DNA of 16,811 nucleotides, taken from the IMG/VR virus record IMGVR_UViG_2579778842_000004, one strand, 5' to 3'. A model generated the notes under the pieces. That model worked only from the letters and a program-made list of their open reading frames with translations, ran no database searches and was not told the DNA's origin. Position numbers and translations under genes: made by a program. This DNA is from a virus (taxonomy: Duplodnaviria; Heunggongvirae; Uroviricota; Caudoviricetes). Shown here one piece after another: positions 897 through 16,811 of this stretch; position 1 is the stretch's first letter; every line of letters starts with the position of its first letter.

Positions 897-2156
897 TTAG
901 TTCGCCCTTCTGAGAGGCGTTACGTTGTAGTCTTTTCCGCTTTCCAGTGCCACCAGCAGATCAGCCCACTGTGCCAGTGCTGCTTTACGCTCATCAAAAT
1001 ACTGATGGCGGTTATAAATCCCCTCTACGCCCTTAATGCGATGATTGAGGCATCGTTCCGCCACAACAGGATCAACACCCAACGCTGCTAAATGAGTACG
1101 TGCGGTGCGTCGGAAGTCGTGAATCGTGAAATTAGGCACATCCGGCATTTCGGCGCGAACCTTAGCCAGTGCTACGGGTAAAGTGCTTTCCTGAATATGT
1201 GGGATCATTCTGTTTTGCATCTTCCTGGCCGGAAGCACCCATGCGCTATTACATGAAAAGGTGTGTAGCTCTCTCAACCATTCAACGGCTGGGGAAGGTA
1301 GAGGTATATCAATAGGGTCTCCGTTTTTGCTGCGTTCTTCCGGCAAATGCCATACCGCACCATCTAAATCAAACTCTTCCCATCGTGCGGCGCATAACTC
1401 CATCTTACGAACGCATAGTGCCAGCAATAGCTTAAATGTCAGTTCGTTCTGGCGGCTGAATCCTTTTGCGGTGCGCATAGCCTCGAATAGCCTGATAAGC
1501 TCATCGCGAGTTAGCCAACGGTCGCGGGAAACCTCTTTACCACCAGCATCAGATACTTCAAACGCTGAACAAGGGTTTATCTCCAGAGCGTGGCGTTTTA
1601 TCCCATAGTCAAAGATACGGCGTGTCCAGCGTAATACATCTGTTGCTATCGTTGGTGCTCCTCGGTCAACGATACCTTTCAACATGTCGTCAATGTGGCG
1701 TGGCTTAACGTCCTCTACCTTCATATGCCCAATGCAGGGGTTAATATCCTTATCAATTCTCCGGCGAAGGATATCGGGATGTTTCCATCTCGGAAGTATC
1801 TGGCGCTCGAAGTATTCGGAGGCCAGATCTGAAACACGCATGGCGTTTTTCTCAGCCTCCATTTTTGCCAGTGCTTCAGCTTTTCGTTCCTGTTTCTCTG
1901 CTGCTACGTCATAGCCAAGAGCAACTCTGGCTGACAGCTCTTTTGCTGTTTCTCTGGCTTTTGATAGTGACAGTTCGGAGTAAGAGCCTATAACCATAGC
2001 CCGCTGCTTTCCTGCGAGCTTATAGCGGAATCGCCAGAACGGGACTGTGTAGTTTTTGGGGTAGCAAATATAAAGGCCGTTGCCGTCTGCCTTGCCATCA
2101 AATCTGTCTCCCGCCTTTATCCATGCGCGGATCTGCATATCTGTGAGTTTTGGCAT
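897..2156 (-). CDS. int: Tyrosine recombinase / integrase, P4-type (N-terminal arm-binding domain plus catalytic domain)
   Basis: N-terminus MPKLTDMQIRAWIKAG...DGNGLYICYPKNYTVPFWRFRYKLAGKQRAMVIGSY is typical of P4-family integrases. C-terminal catalytic motifs HDFRRTARTHLAALG and LNHRIKGVEGIYNRHQY (R...HxxR...Y). Start placed at the internal ATG (2156) rather than the track start 2240, because 2157-2240 is occupied by TGTACA repeats. Confidence 0.88.
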   Translation of the reverse strand: MPKLTDMQIRAWIKAGDRFDGKADGNGLYICYPKNYTVPFWRFRYKLAGKQRAMVIGSYSELSLSKARETAKELSARVALGYDVAAEKQERKAEALAKMEAEKNAMRVSDLASEYFERQILPRWKHPDILRRRIDKDINPCIGHMKVEDVKPRHIDDMLKGIVDRGAPTIATDVLRWTRRIFDYGIKRHALEINPCSAFEVSDAGGKEVSRDRWLTRDELIRLFEAMRTAKGFSRQNELTFKLLLALCVRKMELCAARWEEFDLDGAVWHLPEERSKNGDPIDIPLPSPAVEWLRELHTFSCNSAWVLPARKMQNRMIPHIQESTLPVALAKVRAEMPDVPNFTIHDFRRTARTHLAALGVDPVVAERCLNHRIKGVEGIYNRHQYFDERKAALAQWADLLVALESGKDYNVTPLRRAN

Positions 2157-2185
2157 TGCGAATACCTGAATATCGAATATGGGTG

Positions 2186-2236
2186 TGTACATAAAGCAAT
2201 GTACATGAAAGTCATTATGTACACCTCTATGTACAC
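2186..2236. promoter_or_regulatory. Array of four (A)TGTACA(C/T) repeats just upstream of int
   Basis: tgtacat 2186, atgtacat 2199, atgtacac 2216, atgtacac 2229, spaced 13-17 bp. TGTACA is self-complementary. Candidate operator or arm-type sites. Confidence 0.4.
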
Positions 2237-2281
2237 GCATATTGTGCGCTTTGTTGCGTCGTTATGATAGCTCATGATAAC

Positions 2282-2318
2282 AAAAAAGCCCGACATTTCG
2301 CGGGCTTTGTGTTTTTTT
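2282..2318. terminator. Bidirectional rho-independent terminator-like hairpin
   Basis: A-run 2282-2287, stem aagcccg (2286-2292) / cgggctt (2301-2307), loop 8 nt, then TTTGTGTTTTTTT. T-run available on both strands. Confidence 0.5.
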
Positions 2319-2427
2319 GCTGCTTGGTGATTTTTACTGATGGCTTATTCGATATTCTGAATCTGTTTGTAGAGTATTGGCTTCAATGCCGCATTGTAGC
2401 TGGTTTCTTCCTAATGCGATTTTTGAT

Positions 2428-2447
2428 TATGTACACCCTTATGTACA
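2428..2447. promoter_or_regulatory. Second pair of ATGTACAC repeats (ttatgtacacccttatgtacacgg)
   Basis: Near-identical to the 2215-2238 pair, about 210 bp away on the other side of the terminator. Confidence 0.3.
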
Positions 2448-2740
2448 CGGTTTTTTCGGGTGCTTTGGTCAGAAGCCATTGCCTACATCCCTCACGATCG
2501 AGGTGTGTAACCATGTTCAGGCTTGTTGTCCTGCGCGCGCGTATTGCTCGTGAAATTGCTGTACCCAATAGTGATGTCCGAAAAAACCTCCGTTCTCACA
2601 TGAAACAGCCATATGCAACTGGTAACTGAACAGACTGGTAGACCGTTCGTTCAGTAAATACCTGATATTTTCGCCAACGAGAAATTGCGTTGGCTGGCAG
2701 GGTGCAAATTTGCACGATGGACTAACCCATTGATTCTTTC

Positions 2741-2765
2741 GAAAACCCCCATTGGGGGAAAAGCC
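2741..2765 (-). terminator. Weak terminator-like hairpin downstream of the PerC-like gene
   Basis: On the minus strand CCCCC-AAU-GGGGG followed by UUUUC; lies about 115 nt past the stop at 2875. Adjacent perfect palindrome gtgcaaatttgcac at 2702-2715. Confidence 0.3.
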
Positions 2766-2874
2766 TAACTCATTGGTTTTCCCACAATCCTCAATTTGAG
2801 GAATGTACCTAAAACCATTTTTATAGCTCCGATCCCTTCAAAGTGAGGGGTAATTTGCCAAAACAGAGAGAGCA

Positions 2875-3162
2875 TTACTGTCTCTGGCAATCTTTATCGC
2901 GATAACGCCTGAAGTACCCTCTCGCTTCCTCATCCATACCAAGAGCCGAATGAGTCCGCTTAACTGCCTGTCTTAAATCTCCGAATCTGTCTGTAGTTGC
3001 TGGTGGGCGTGCCGCCTTACGGATACATTCAGAGCGTCTGTTTGCTGCATGTTCACGTTCTTTATCGCCATCTGCCAGCATCATGACTTCTGCCCATCGT
3101 GCGGCAGCTCTCCGGTATAGCCCTTTTGACTCCAGCTCTTCAGCTTTCCTGTCCCTTATCAT
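2875..3162 (-). CDS. Small basic regulator, PerC/ANR-family-like (tentative)
   Basis: 95 aa, MIRDRKAEELESKGLYRRAAARWAEVMM... matches my recollection of the N-terminal pattern of PerC-type small activators; GAGAGG 6 nt upstream of ATG. Family assignment is from memory, not a search. Confidence 0.55.
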   Translation of the reverse strand: MIRDRKAEELESKGLYRRAAARWAEVMMLADGDKEREHAANRRSECIRKAARPPATTDRFGDLRQAVKRTHSALGMDEEARGYFRRYRDKDCQRQ

Positions 3163-3198
3163 TTCTGCCTCTCAGATTATATAGATAAGCAAAAAGGT

Positions 3199-3319
3199 GT
3201 TGGTTCAGTTGGTTCAGTTGGTTCAATTTGTAAAGATCGTTGTTTTTATTGTGTTTTTTCTGAAATATTGAACCAACATCAACTCATTTTGAACCAACAC
3301 AGCCCAGCTCTGAACCAAC
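3199..3319. repeat. Iteron cluster A: 3 tandem GTTGGTTCA (3199-3225) plus 3 inverted TGAACCAAC at 3269, 3290, 3311 (21-bp phasing)
   Basis: Read directly. The whole block is an imperfect reverse complement of cluster B (9351-9461), including the shared spacer atttgtaaaga. Confidence 0.65.
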
Positions 3320-3373
3320 AACACAGCGATAGCTTTGTGATTGGCCCGTTATTTTCTGGCTGATATTTGAGCG

Positions 3374-3404
3374 TATAACAGTGTTATACAGTGGTATACT
3401 GTAT
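3374..3404. promoter_or_regulatory. Two adjacent palindromes upstream of the RHH gene (candidate operators)
   Basis: TATAACA-g-TGTTATA (3374-3388) and ATACAGT-ggtat-ACTGTAT (3386-3404), overlapping a TATACT -10-like hexamer about 12 nt before the ATG. Confidence 0.4.
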
Positions 3405-3421
3405 GGATATTACTCACTGAT

Positions 3422-3877
3422 ATGGTCTTTGCAATGAGCAAATCTAATCTGGTCGCGTTCCGCATCCCATCTGAATTGCAGGATGAGTTTAATCGGTCTG
3501 TTCTCGCTTCTGGAGGGGATAAAACCTCCTGGCTTGTTGATGCGATTCGCATGAAGCTGGGACAGCCGGAAAAGTCTATTGATTCACGAATGCTTGGGCT
3601 GGTGGAGCGCATGGAAAAAGCTGCTGCGTCGCTTATTGCCGGAAAGCCGAACATCCCACCAAAGCCATATAACGAAACGGCAGTTATAAAGATCATTGCC
3701 GATACCATCCGACAGGGATTTGATAATGGGCGTGTGATAGCTGAACGGATCAATGAAGCAGGCTATCAAACAAAAGCTGGTAAAGCGTGGGATAAAGATA
3801 TTTACAGCGCGTGGAAGCGTCAGGGAAGCAATGCTGAAAAGTTAAAAGCGGTGATTGATTGTAAGGTCAGCGTATAA
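3422..3877 (+). CDS. Ribbon-helix-helix (Arc/MetJ/CopG-like) DNA-binding protein with C-terminal extension
   Basis: N-terminus SNLVAFRIPSELQDEFNRSVLASGGDKTSWLVDAIRMKL fits the beta-strand/helix/helix RHH pattern. No clear SD; alternative start at ATG 3434. Confidence 0.6.
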   Translation: MVFAMSKSNLVAFRIPSELQDEFNRSVLASGGDKTSWLVDAIRMKLGQPEKSIDSRMLGLVERMEKAAASLIAGKPNIPPKPYNETAVIKIIADTIRQGFDNGRVIAERINEAGYQTKAGKAWDKDIYSAWKRQGSNAEKLKAVIDCKVSV

Positions 3878-3956
3878 ACATGAGTGCCCATTGGAAAGCT
3901 GCTTGGGCCAATACCTTTATACACCAGCAGGTGGTGACGATAGGTGAGGATCAGGA

Positions 3957-4178
3957 ATGAAAGGCAGAACGCCACACATTGAACATCAAGCCAACCACTT
4001 CTCGGATGTTCGCAATGAGATGATTGCCATTCGCGGTGATATGCACGGCTTGGAGCGTCGAATTATTGATAAGATTGATGAAAATAGAGATAAGGCCAGT
4101 GAAAATCAAAAGTGGATCATCGGCCTGTTGATTTTATCAATGCTTATCCCGCTACTTATCGCATTGGTCACAAAATGA
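3957..4178 (+). CDS. Small tail-anchored membrane protein (coiled-coil N-terminus, single C-terminal TM)
   Basis: 73 aa; C-terminal WIIGLLILSMLIPLLIALVTK is one hydrophobic helix. Topology resembles XhlA-like or holin-like small proteins, but no family confirmed. Confidence 0.5.
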   Translation: MKGRTPHIEHQANHFSDVRNEMIAIRGDMHGLERRIIDKIDENRDKASENQKWIIGLLILSMLIPLLIALVTK

Positions 4179-9030: not shown

Positions 9031-9350
9031 CGTTCTGTATGTCAGGTTTTGACAGGTTTTTTATGGACTCTAAAAACTATATTTATGGTGTCGCATTACT
9101 CTTCACGGCAGGCGCTTTCCAGTTCTGCCCTTGCTTCTGGCTCCATTGGTAATTTGATTCGAAATCAGCTATGCGGATGGTTTGCTGAACAGGCATAACA
9201 ACTTCTCAGAGGCTGTTTTTTTGAACTACGAAAATTTCGTAGTGCTCACTTTCAAAAACGTCACGCCCTTGTACACAGGATTTTACGAAAGTCTCGTAAA
9301 GCACTCTCTGATGCCAGCCAGATGTTGTGCTCATCAATTCAGTCACGTTG

Positions 9351-9461
9351 TGTTGGTTCAAAATGCCGTGTTGTTGGTTCAGTGTTGGTTCAATAAAAAG
9401 AATAAAATCCTTATAAAACAATACTCTTTACAAATTGAACCAACTGAACCAACTGAACCAA
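9351..9461. repeat. Iteron cluster B: 3 GTTGGTTCA (9351, 9372, 9383) plus 3 tandem TGAACCAAC (9435-9461)
   Basis: Read directly; mirror image of cluster A, immediately downstream of the primase stop (9488). Confidence 0.65.
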
Positions 9462-9487
9462 CACCTTTTCTACGCACATGAAGAAGC

Positions 9488-13741: not shown

Positions 13742-14551
13742 GTGCCACCTCCATGCGGATACGACCAGCAAAAAAGCAGACGTGATCGCGCACCAGAGAA
13801 CGGCGAGCATCGCGTTCAGACTCGGCAGCAATATGATGAATTTTGGCGGTAATTGTCGGGCAATCGCGGCGAACTGCGGCGATAATCCAGATAAATTGCG
13901 GTTTTTGGGTAGGGGTAGTAGCCAGCATGTGGCAGCCTCCTTGATTGATGGTTTATAGCCACCGCCGGAGGTCCTAAGCTCGCTGGCGGTGGACTGTACA
14001 GGGTTAGGACTACTGGCAATCAAGGAAACCAGCCTGACCGAAGTCAGCCCCATACAGCCCACCATTGATAAGGTGTGCGTGTGCGCCGATACAAAAAAAG
14101 ACGCTGGCGCGTCATGTATCGCCTCGATTGCCTGCGGGGTCCTAATCCCGGCACCCGTTTTATGAGGTGCCTTATAACCATAAACCGTGTTGCCGCATAA
14201 CGGCAAGCTCTTTTTTATGGACTCCGAAAACTCACTATTGGAAGCACCAGATGCACAATACATCGCGCTCATTTCGTTAACGTCACGCACGTGGACGAAT
14301 GTTTTTGTGGAGTCACTACACGAGCAGAACAGGTGATCTACGACCAGAAATTCTCTGGCGCAGCCGCTGACCTTCTCAACGCTAACACCATCGACCGTAA
14401 TTTCTGACATAGTTAAGGCATCCGCTCCTACCACCAGCAAATGATAAACTTTGCTTGTATCTGCTGTATTAATGCCTGACTTTGCTGTCATATTGCTGGA
14501 TTTTGGCGACATACCAGCCAGTGAAAATGTCTTCTTCTGGACGGTTAGCAT
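13523..14551 (-). CDS. Long uninterrupted open frame (342 codons); N-terminal about 150 codons look coding, middle section coincides with RNA structures; possibly composite or frameshifted
   Basis: ATG 14551 has GGAGG 7 nt upstream and overlaps the upstream stop (ATGCTAA). No in-frame stop until 13523; a T7 run sits at 14099-14093. Alternative annotation is the two small ORFs listed separately. Confidence 0.3.
13734..13928 (-). CDS. Small basic hypothetical protein (64 aa)
   Basis: ATG 13928 preceded by textbook SD AAGGAGG (13942-13936, 7-nt spacer). The SD lies in the 3' arm of a predicted RNA stem. Confidence 0.45.
   Translation of the reverse strand: MLATTPTQKPQFIWIIAAVRRDCPTITAKIHHIAAESERDARRSLVRDHVCFFAGRIRMEVAHD
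13936..14113 (-). promoter_or_regulatory. Structured RNA leader/attenuator-like region (minus-strand transcript)
   Basis: 5' to 3' on the minus strand: hairpin GACGC-GCCA-GCGUC then U7 (14113-14093); CUGAC-UUCG-GUCAG tetraloop hairpin (14047-14034); 9-bp long-range stem CCUUGAUUG (14025-14017) pairing CAAUCAAGG (13947-13939), which contains the SD of the 13928 ORF and encloses an 8-bp hairpin CCACCGCC/GGCGGUGG (13992-13959). Confidence 0.4.
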
Positions 14552-15565: not shown

Positions 15566-15997
15566 TTAGGCGGCGTTAAACGCGTTCGGGTAGAGTTTCA
15601 GAATGTCGGCAATTTCCTGCTGAGAAAGTCCGTTGTGATCATTTATGTTCGCAAGATGGTTAACATGAGTGATCACTTTCAGAACATCACCACGGCAGGA
15701 GAAACGGTAGCGAAGGTGTGTTCCGATACCATCAGGATTCTTTTCGTCGATACGCTCCAGAGTGATTCCAAGCTGGCGTTCTAACTCTGTTGCATAGTTA
15801 CGACCAGAAGACAGACGGCAGTAGCGAAGAATGTCATTTTCTGTCCATCCCTCTATACCAGTACGCAGCATATAGACTCTGGCACGATGCTTTTTCGGTG
15901 TGCGCTTTGGTTCTTGAAGGGATTTTGTAAGGGGCGTAACATCAGATACGCGAATATCTGAATTAGCCGCCTGTAATGGGCGGTTTTTCTTTTCCAT
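15566..15997 (-). CDS. Hypothetical protein (143 aa), translationally coupled to the AlpA-like gene
   Basis: ATG overlaps the AlpA-like stop (TGATG); AAGGTGG 5 nt upstream. Confidence 0.6.
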   Translation of the reverse strand: MEKKNRPLQAANSDIRVSDVTPLTKSLQEPKRTPKKHRARVYMLRTGIEGWTENDILRYCRLSSGRNYATELERQLGITLERIDEKNPDGIGTHLRYRFSCRGDVLKVITHVNHLANINDHNGLSQQEIADILKLYPNAFNAA

Positions 15998-16200
15998 CAG
16001 GCCACCTTCCCGCGGCGTTCTGCCAGCCAGTTGTGAATCTCAACCGCATCAAACGCAGTTATTTTTTCTCCCAGCTTTACCGGACGTGGTAGTGAACCGT
16101 TTCTTACTTTACGGTCGATGGTGGATACACTAACGCCCAGCAATTCAGCCAGGCGGAAGCGTCTGATATAGCCTTTTGTAGGAATAGTGTCGGTGTTCAT
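15997..16200 (-). CDS. alpA: AlpA-family / excisionase-type helix-turn-helix regulator
   Basis: 67 aa; RFRLAELLGVSVSTIDRKVRNGSLPRPVKLGEKITAFDAVEIHNWL fits the AlpA/Xis HTH pattern; first gene of the long minus-strand operon. Confidence 0.75.
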   Translation of the reverse strand: MNTDTIPTKGYIRRFRLAELLGVSVSTIDRKVRNGSLPRPVKLGEKITAFDAVEIHNWLAERRGKVA

Positions 16201-16204
16201 GCTT

Positions 16205-16259
16205 CCCGTAACCTCTTAGCGATAGTTGTTGCTTCGTTACGGGAGGAAGTATCTGTACA
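16205..16259 (-). promoter_or_regulatory. Leader of the AlpA-like gene: 8-bp inverted repeat around the SD plus one TGTACA motif
   Basis: CCCGTAAC (16205-16212) and GTTACGGG (16236-16243) separated by 23 nt; AAGAGG lies at the loop/stem junction; tgtaca at 16254-16259. Confidence 0.35.
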
Positions 16260-16314: not shown

Positions 16315-16811
16315 CTACCCCTTACCGTTGGCGGCAGCACGTAAGTGTCTCAAAATCACATCTTCATTTGTGATTGCTAACGGTGGAATTTCGTCTTTAT
16401 GAGCCACTATGCAATCCCGCCACTTCTCAGGGCTTATTTCTTTCTTTTTGCCACGGCATTCATCAGGATACTTTGACAAAAGATATATTGCTGATTTGAA
16501 AAGTTTTTCCCTGTTTTCAGCATGTCTCTCGGCATTATGGTTGCTATTTTTTATTTCAGGTATTAGTTCCTGTTCTACCGCCATTTCGTATCGTTTTTTG
16601 CTCTTAGCTGCGTCAAAACTTCCATTAACCTTTGCGTCGTGAAGATATTCTAAATCAGCCTTTGTTATATAAATGTTTTTATCTGACAGGCTACTCAGGT
16701 GAATCTGGGAACTTTGCATTTTGAATTTATATAGATCACAATCAAATGTTGCTTCAAGTCGCACATATGGCTCTCCACATTCTTGTGAATGATAATGTCG
16801 TGTTGTACTAC
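16315..16811 (-). CDS. Hypothetical AT-rich protein ('gene X'), 3' part; 5' end runs off the window end
   Basis: Frame is open from the window end to the stop at 16315. The last 54 codons (LSKYPDECRGKKKEISPEKWRDCIVAHKDEIPPLAITNEDVILRHLRAAANGKG) are unique; the rest duplicates 1-332 in the same frame. Confidence 0.6.
   Translation of the reverse strand, partial: STTRHYHSQECGEPYVRLEATFDCDLYKFKMQSSQIHLSSLSDKNIYITKADLEYLHDAKVNGSFDAAKSKKRYEMAVEQELIPEIKNSNHNAERHAENREKLFKSAIYLLSKYPDECRGKKKEISPEKWRDCIVAHKDEIPPLAITNEDVILRHLRAAANGKG
16480..16811. repeat. Terminal direct repeat, right copy (matches 1-332)
   Basis: See left copy; offset between copies is 16479 bp. Confidence 0.95.

Follow-up and report, generated by a model that had tools for sequence, protein, structure and literature searches.

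Oriented TGTACA repeats upstream of int in a PICI-like phage satellite as probable arm-type sites of its P4-family integrase at yicC

What are the clustered TGTACA repeats that lie upstream of the integrase gene of this viral element, and which protein reads them? The window, by which we mean the whole 16,811-nt stretch of DNA that was analysed, contains the hexamer at positions 2186, 2200, 2218, 2230, 2430, 2442, 9270, 13995 and 16254, a total of nine copies versus 3.3 expected. An initial annotation had described six of these as arrays flanking a bidirectional terminator and had offered two candidate readers, an AlpA-like protein and the integrase itself, the latter with the repeats as arm-type sites in an attP-like region. 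Our analysis leads to the conclusion that positions 2185-2448 are very probably the attP of a PICI-like satellite, in which the repeats serve as arm sites for the element's own P4-family Int and yicC is the integration target.

The cluster itself is real. Six copies fall inside 262 bp (2186-2447), whereas the largest cluster found in a 262-bp span across 2000 dinucleotide-preserving shuffles held three, and six were never reached. At its full length the unit is an oriented 10-mer, TTATGTACAC, with the palindromic hexamer at its centre; TATGTACAC occurs exactly five times in the window, and all five occurrences are within 2185-2448. A 24-nt direct repeat (2214-2237 and 2426-2449; 92% identity; ATTATGTACACC..TATGTACACG) carries two sites, 12 bp apart, in each of its blocks. 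The copy at 2185-2194 is perfect and runs opposite to these tandem pairs, and a degenerate copy at 2199-2208 has the same orientation as 2185-2194. The lone hexamers at 9270, 13995 (absent from the earlier list) and 16254 have no exact match to the extended motif, and outside the cluster this motif gave three one-mismatch matches versus 2.5 expected by chance. No co-varying motif copy was found upstream of alpA in the sequences of relatives. Given the chance-level count and the missing co-varying copy, all three lone hexamers are best read as chance occurrences; the copy in the alpA leader is not conserved.

Since bases 1-332 are repeated exactly at 16480-16811, the window represents a circular contig whose unit measures 16,479 bp, and it is an excised or replicating copy of the element. 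Its genes encode a P4-family tyrosine integrase, an AlpA-family protein, PerC, a TOPRIM/DUF927 primase and P22-like DNA-transfer proteins, and it carries iterons; with a gene set as in Gram-negative PICIs such as EcCIMP1, it is a PICI-like phage satellite. The Gram-negative PICIs EcCICFT073 and EcCIMP1 combine int, alpA, perC and a primase gene (PMC6092414, PMC11773190). EcCIMP1 also shares with the window PerC, an antirepressor, Ash, P22-like DNA-transfer genes and its size class, although it occupies a different chromosomal site. PICIs integrated at yicC are mentioned in bioRxiv 10.1101/2022.07.18.500453, and text searches of these three sources returned no description of arm-type sites or of Int co-variation.

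Other features of the element were observed in passing. Two iteron clusters of GTTGGTTCA repeats (3192-3301 and 9349-9469) are mutually inverted, over 55 nt (95%) and 38 nt (84%); one is beside perC near attP, the other is just downstream of the end of the primase gene, and the arrangement is reminiscent of P4 crr/ori. Rfam matches at gathering score lie on the minus strand at 822-888, 13982-14069 and 14094-14170; among the Rfam motifs, an int-alpA RNA motif is directly downstream of int, and C4 antisense RNA and isrK adjoin the antA/antB antirepressor and Icd/Ash region.

The integration site was located by searching window positions 2100-2900 against 5,426 complete E. coli genomes. Matches were obtained in 378 genomes and break at ~2345 in all but three records; in ~375 genomes the element is split exactly at this core, between yicC and dinD. 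In E. coli TO6 the element sits between dinD and yicC, with ggcTTATTCGATATTCTGAATCTGctcgcg at the int-side junction and gagTTATTCGATGTTCTGAATCTGtttgta at the dinD-side junction, and the empty attB of K-12 reads gagTTATTCGATGTTCTGAATCTGctcgcg. A 21-bp identity block is present in both TO6 junctions and once in the empty K-12 site, and this core, 2345-2365 in the window, corresponds, once reverse-complemented, to the final 21 bp of yicC, which include its stop codon. An A/G difference at 2354 separates an attP-derived half in the int-side junction from an attB-derived half in the dinD-side junction, which places strand exchange within 2355-2365. The uninterrupted attP junction was also found in two circular records of 12 kb and 19 kb, the former carrying all six sites, and in E. 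coli HB37 (L137, NZ_CP053080.1 183810-224567) two complete copies stand head to tail in the dinD-yicC interval, joined by an attP-type junction. The region can be laid out as follows, the arm sites being predicted.

897-2156, minus strand: int, tyrosine integrase of 419 aa, with Pfam domains Arm-DNA-bind_3 (residues 4-90), Phage_int_M and Phage_integrase
2185-2194, plus strand: arm site 1, int-proximal, GTGTACATAA, inverted relative to the tandem pairs and ending 28 nt before the int ATG
2199-2208, plus strand: arm site 2, int-proximal and degenerate, ATGTACATGA, matching at 8/10 positions
2215-2236, minus strand: int-side tandem pair of 12-bp period, GTGTACATAGAG GTGTACATAATG on the int-sense strand, 108 nt from the core
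2238-2283, minus strand: conserved spacer block of 46 bp, GTTATCATGrGCTATCATAAaGACGCAACAAAGCGCA
2285-2308, no strand assigned: intrinsic terminator, a GC-rich hairpin flanked by an A run and, on the opposite side, a T run
2345-2365, no strand assigned: attP identity block (core), TTATTCGATATTCTGAATCTG, defined by the TO6 junctions, K-12 attB and the E. coli match breaks
2427-2448, minus strand: int-distal tandem pair of 12-bp period, GTGTACATAAGG GTGTACATAATC on the int-sense strand, 61 nt from the core

Read outward from int, the order is thus the ATG at 2156, a 28-nt leader, the inverted site, the weak inverted site, a tandem pair, the 46-bp block, the hairpin, 36 nt, the core, 61 nt and the second tandem pair, which has the orientation of the first. 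The repeats are unrelated in sequence to the core and lie on both its sides, four int-side sites at 109-160 bp and two far-side sites at 62-83 bp. The hairpin, the bidirectional terminator noted earlier, has a T run on both strands and lies between the arrays; what matters biologically is that they flank not only this terminator but also the attP core (2345-2365). Half the core recurs as a perfect 12-nt inverted copy in the leader of int, 12 nt before its ATG (2168-2179 versus 2346-2357; GAATATCGAATA / TATTCGATATTC). It was considered as an extra core-type site for Int, but it is not conserved in relatives and is probably fortuitous or recent.

Two further observations concern the junction itself. 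In E. coli PSS-08-1 (L136, a type B element in the classification below), the dinD-side identity block reads CAGATTCA-ACATCGAATAA, with a one-base deletion versus yicC, which fits the att-site drift reported for yicC PICIs (bioRxiv 10.1101/2022.07.18.500453). An open reading frame of 121 codons (2264-2629, plus strand) spans the terminator, core and distal arm sites; because it runs across the core it is possible in the excised form only, it is unannotated in every relative, and it is probably not a gene.

This arrangement closely follows that of phage P4. Pierson and Kahn reportedly described, in 1987, a P4 attP composed of int-proximal and int-distal arm repeats around a 20-bp core. The P4 record NC_001609 annotates 'attP arm sequence repeat' features in the order (+), (-)(-), core, (-)(-), which is the strand order found here, and in both elements int is followed by arm repeats, core, arm repeats and then replication iterons, with a 12-bp period in the tandem pairs. 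The int-side pair at 2215-2236 corresponds to P4 repeats 3942-3965 and the distal pair at 2427-2448 to P4 4151-4174, the pairs being 112 and 53 nt from the core in P4 and 108 and 61 nt here. The two systems differ in their motif (TGCCCCCA-type in P4, TATGTACAC here) and in their target, which is tRNA-Leu for P4 and the 3' end of the protein gene yicC here; no tRNA gene is present in the window, unlike the integration of P4 type at a tRNA 3' end. The inverted copy abuts the int start in P4 but ends 28 nt upstream here, and features confined to the present element are a second, weak inverted copy and, between arm and core, a terminator that the element itself brings.

The same logic is known from lambda attP, where arm-type sites P1, P2 and P'1-P'3 are read by the Int N-domain alongside IHF, Xis and Fis sites. 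Both systems would use a heterobivalent integrase with arm sites on both sides that are unlike the core and that are split into attL and attR on integration, although lambda differs in the family of its arm-binding domain and in the number, spacing and orientation of its sites. Lambda also has IHF sites and co-transcribed int and xis, whereas here the IHF consensus WATCAANNNNTTR has no match at one mismatch or fewer between the arms and the core, its window-wide count being at chance. Three IHF-consensus-like matches, one of them perfect (2723-2735), cluster at 2655-2778 on the minus strand, 290-410 bp beyond the core and outside the arm sites; here too the window-wide count is at chance.

The integrase is equipped for such a role. 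Its start was taken as the ATG at 2156 and not as that of the longer open reading frame from 2240, RefSeq relatives being annotated at 419-422 aa. Like P4 integrase it belongs to the Arm-DNA-bind_3 family, yet the two share only 25% identity (E 2e-20). Its N-domain is a homologue of the arm-binding domains whose structures were solved for the HAI7 and HPI integrases (PDB 3JU0 and 3JTZ; E about 1e-7), so that the protein has a domain of the kind that reads arm sites. In the proposed mechanism, this N-terminal domain would read oriented sites of ~10-12 bp (TTATGTACAC), and Int molecules would bridge arm sites, through their N-domains, and the core, through their C-terminal domains, wrapping the DNA into an intasome. 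Such an intasome would carry out attP x attB integration and, with the arms split into attL and attR, excision, and Int on the arm sites near the ATG would also repress its own gene. We infer from the sequence that Int physically binds these repeats and needs them as arm sites for recombination.

The initial annotation had called for a motif scan in related elements, and this was performed on 45 loci from different species with Int 61-92% identical to that of the window, drawn from Enterobacterales, Aeromonas, Tolumonas, Vogesella, Azonexus and Rhodocyclaceae. The repeat geometry upstream of int is kept in all 45 species, whereas the motif itself varies. The shared plan consists of the yicC 3' end, a hairpin with a T run, a spacer and a tandem pair starting near -80, and in most loci an inverted copy ends ~20-29 nt before the ATG, this copy having been mis-called by the script in a few of the 45. 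The position (-28) and orientation of site 1 are kept in ~45 relatives, and its sequence co-varies with the tandem copies; site 2 is present and co-varying in most relatives and absent in some (L070, L073, L074, L098). Five motif types were distinguished.

Type A, GTGTACATA: the window, Rosenbergiella gaditana and Serratia sp.
Type B, GTGTACCCAA: many loci
Type C, GTGTACACCT: several loci
Type D, TGTACCAA: the Yersinia, Rahnella and Pantoea group
Type E, GTGCACCC: the Azonexus group

Within one element, the tandem and inverted copies share the variant, ATA pairing with TAT, CCAA with TTGG and ACCT with AGGT. The far end of the element was found in only 2 of the 45 genome loci, most elements exceeding the 10-kb flank, and E. 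coli records were used instead; in all, the distal arm was recovered from the attP-form viral contigs L014 and L019, Aeromonas L107, Pantoea L111, TO6, PSS-08-1 (type B) and the 12-kb circle. Where recovered, the distal pair is of its own element's type and lies 60-65 nt from the core, and it follows that one attB is used by two E. coli elements whose motif types differ. Among more distant relatives (Int 28-43% identical), ~17 of 22 loci have a repeat pair upstream of int, with other motifs, a 10-13-bp and mostly 12-bp period, a position in most cases within ~120 nt of the ATG and, in some, an inverted copy nearer the ATG. The plan is thus general for P4-family integrases.

The terminator is conserved too. 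All 30 of the 30 aligned relatives have a stable hairpin with a T run in the yicC/int sense, with differing stems and MFE values from -7 to -19 kcal/mol; the hairpins were folded individually, since RNAalifold, with its register shifted by indels, yielded no consensus. After integration, the hairpin lies 37 nt past the restored yicC stop codon in the yicC/int sense, and the native yicC terminator is displaced to the dinD side. From this position, and as a replacement of the native terminator, the element-borne hairpin would be expected to end yicC transcription and to insulate int from read-through; in the circular form, transcription coming from the direction of perC would be stopped there as well.

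Between the T run (about 2279) and the ATG (2156) there are 123 bp, of which 52 bp are predicted arm sites. A sigma-70 promoter scan of 2000-3500 found none, and a manual look at the conserved block revealed no convincing -35/-10 pair. As the only room for an int promoter overlaps the arm sites, Int bound there probably represses its own gene, a reading drawn from the available space. P4 Int has been reported to repress its own gene. In the KplE1 (CPS-53) IntS/TorI system, attL arm-type sites overlap the intS promoter and negative autoregulation results (PMC2951348). In both elements the integrase gene sits directly beside its att site and points in the direction of the target gene, arm-type sites, predicted ones here, lie in the short interval that must hold the int promoter, and the directionality factor is encoded elsewhere and transcribed separately. 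KplE1 differs in integrase lineage and target (argW tRNA), and its promoter, binding sites and repression were mapped experimentally, whereas those of the present element are predicted from sequence, without a consensus promoter. The spacer block at 2238-2283 is conserved in ~25 relatives whatever the motif type, even where AlpA is only ~40% identical, and its AAAGCGCA persists down to 61% Int identity. This block has neither a sigma-70 consensus nor an IHF consensus, and it could be an int promoter or an accessory-factor site.

CTATCA/TATCA repeats were tried as AlpA or excisionase sites, both in the arm-to-core interval and in the leader of alpA, and rejected, since the window holds 7 versus 7.6 expected. 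The alpA leader (16201-16245, minus strand) has an inverted repeat, CCGTAAC ... GTTACGG, around the ribosome binding site (AGGAG/AGAGG); it is conserved in the window and most relatives, which suggests a hairpin that sequesters this site.

Whether the repeats belong to Int or to AlpA was addressed by asking which protein changes with the motif. CP4-57 is a case in which AlpA increases the expression of intA. For Gram-negative PICIs, proteins of the AlpA family have been linked to excision (PMC11773190). With these two precedents, an AlpA-family gene in the element (15997-16200, minus strand) and an int region in which the lack of a detectable sigma-70-like promoter makes an activator-dependent promoter plausible, the repeats might bind AlpA as an int activator or as an excisionase. 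Of 46 full-length Ints that were aligned, 45 had been given a motif type, and the association of every column with that type was then scored. For loci of types A, B and C, the top six of ~419 Int columns were residues 31, 35-38 and 40, and across all five types residue 55 also ranked in the top five; all top-ranked columns fall in the arm-binding domain, and the probability that six top columns would fall by chance within a single 10-residue window is about 1e-8. Residue 31 is C in type A, R in type B and S in type C, a perfect partition (normalised mutual information 1.0), compared to 0.39 for the best AlpA column.

Segment identity was then scored as a predictor of shared motif type in the 25 loci of types A, B and C that also carry an AlpA gene. 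The AUC was 0.95 for the Int patch of residues 29-41 plus 55, a value to be read with the column ranking as the unbiased statistic, since the patch was chosen from the same data; it was 0.48 for the rest of the Int N-domain, 0.40 for Int residues 96 to the end and 0.37 for AlpA. Among 109 pairs at least 90% identical from residue 96, the 65 of different type had a mean patch identity of 0.42, versus 0.80 for the 44 of the same type. AlpA is 94% identical, with one difference in the HTH region, between the window (type A) and Enterobacter L057 (type B). Moreover, the sites are found on both arms and do not share one orientation, whereas the repeats of directionality factors are typically confined to one arm and point the same way, and the alpA-leader copy at 16254 is neither conserved nor co-varying in relatives. 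Across these sequences, motif type tracks a patch of the Int arm-binding domain (residues 31-40 and 55) and not the rest of Int or AlpA. Binding of the repeats by AlpA is accordingly very unlikely, although AlpA may act on int or excision through other sequences. With a mapped core flanked by the repeats, the P4 plan reproduced and co-variation with the Int patch, it is the arm-type reading of the initial annotation that the sequence comparisons strongly support, and the AlpA reading that they do not support.

In a single-sequence AlphaFold (AF2) model of the N-domain, of moderate confidence (pLDDT 70), strand 1 ends with residue 31 and strand 2 begins with residue 40; residues 35-38 fall within the hairpin, and residue 55 belongs to strand 3. 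In the N-domains of lambda and Tn916 Int, the corresponding sheet inserts into the major groove of the arm sites.

The closeness of repeats and patch raises another reading, in which the co-variation is hitch-hiking: attP and the 5' part of int would move as one exchange cassette, with the repeats conserved for a reason unrelated to Int. In the circular form, both arms and Int codons 29-55 lie within ~410 bp. The pair of Rosenbergiella loci L065 and L073 is informative here, since their Ints are 99.7-100% identical from residue 96 and their AlpA proteins 88%, while their patches read CFPKNYTAPF and RFRPADRSPS and their motifs are of type A and type B, respectively. From +42 to +189 of int (codons 14-63) they differ by a sharp mosaic tract of ~40% nucleotide divergence, compared to ~5% elsewhere, which by sequence indicates a recombinational replacement of the arm-binding sheet. 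Exchange of a small cassette of attP plus 5' int could therefore contribute to the association, and the co-variation could partly reflect physical linkage. However, the L065/L073 spacers (-230 to -90 and -26 to +41) are at or below background divergence while every site copy differs, and at the same motif positions. The chromosomal distal arm is more than 10 kb from int and still matches in motif type, and hitch-hiking leaves the variant shared by all copies in an element unexplained. As the full account of the repeats, hitch-hiking is thus highly improbable, and specific reading by Int is preferred.

Finally, the repeats might be operators for a host regulator, or another regulator of the element, that recognises the TGTACA palindrome and controls int or perC, with no role in recombination. 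TGTACA is self-complementary, as sites of dimeric regulators often are, and the int-side copies are within the int regulatory region. Yet the conserved unit is asymmetric and oriented, and is arranged in 12-bp tandem copies rather than dyads; its flank bases change together with the Int patch among species whose host factors are shared; two E. coli elements at one attB have different motif types; and the P4 record annotates the same plan as attP arms. We consider an operator function without recombination scarcely credible and retain the arm sites of Int as the explanation.

The P4-like arrangement as such is ordinary and of a well-known kind, and it is the repeated re-coding of arm specificity at a shared attB that would be novel. 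The patch variants are C/R/S31, Y/D/F36, T/K/Q/A37, F/T/V/K40 and W55. We tentatively propose, at somewhat short of an even chance, that arm specificity has been re-coded at least four or five times within this beta-hairpin patch of ~10 residues, in Ints that share attB and have near-identical core-binding and catalytic domains, with matching changes in all arm-site copies of both arms. The present result annotates the attP of a common yicC satellite of E. coli and Enterobacterales with its core, a crossover region at 2355-2365, six predicted arm sites and a terminator. Integrases that are nearly identical yet differ in arm motif amount to a natural swap series pointing to the DNA-reading residues of the P4-family domain, and this series could help to predict cross-talk between co-resident islands and to design orthogonal integrase/attP pairs. 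If re-coding is true, it would generate mutually orthogonal recombination modules at one chromosomal site, competing satellites could avoid cross-excision or cross-repression, and the Arm-DNA-bind_3 domain would have a readable residue-to-base code.
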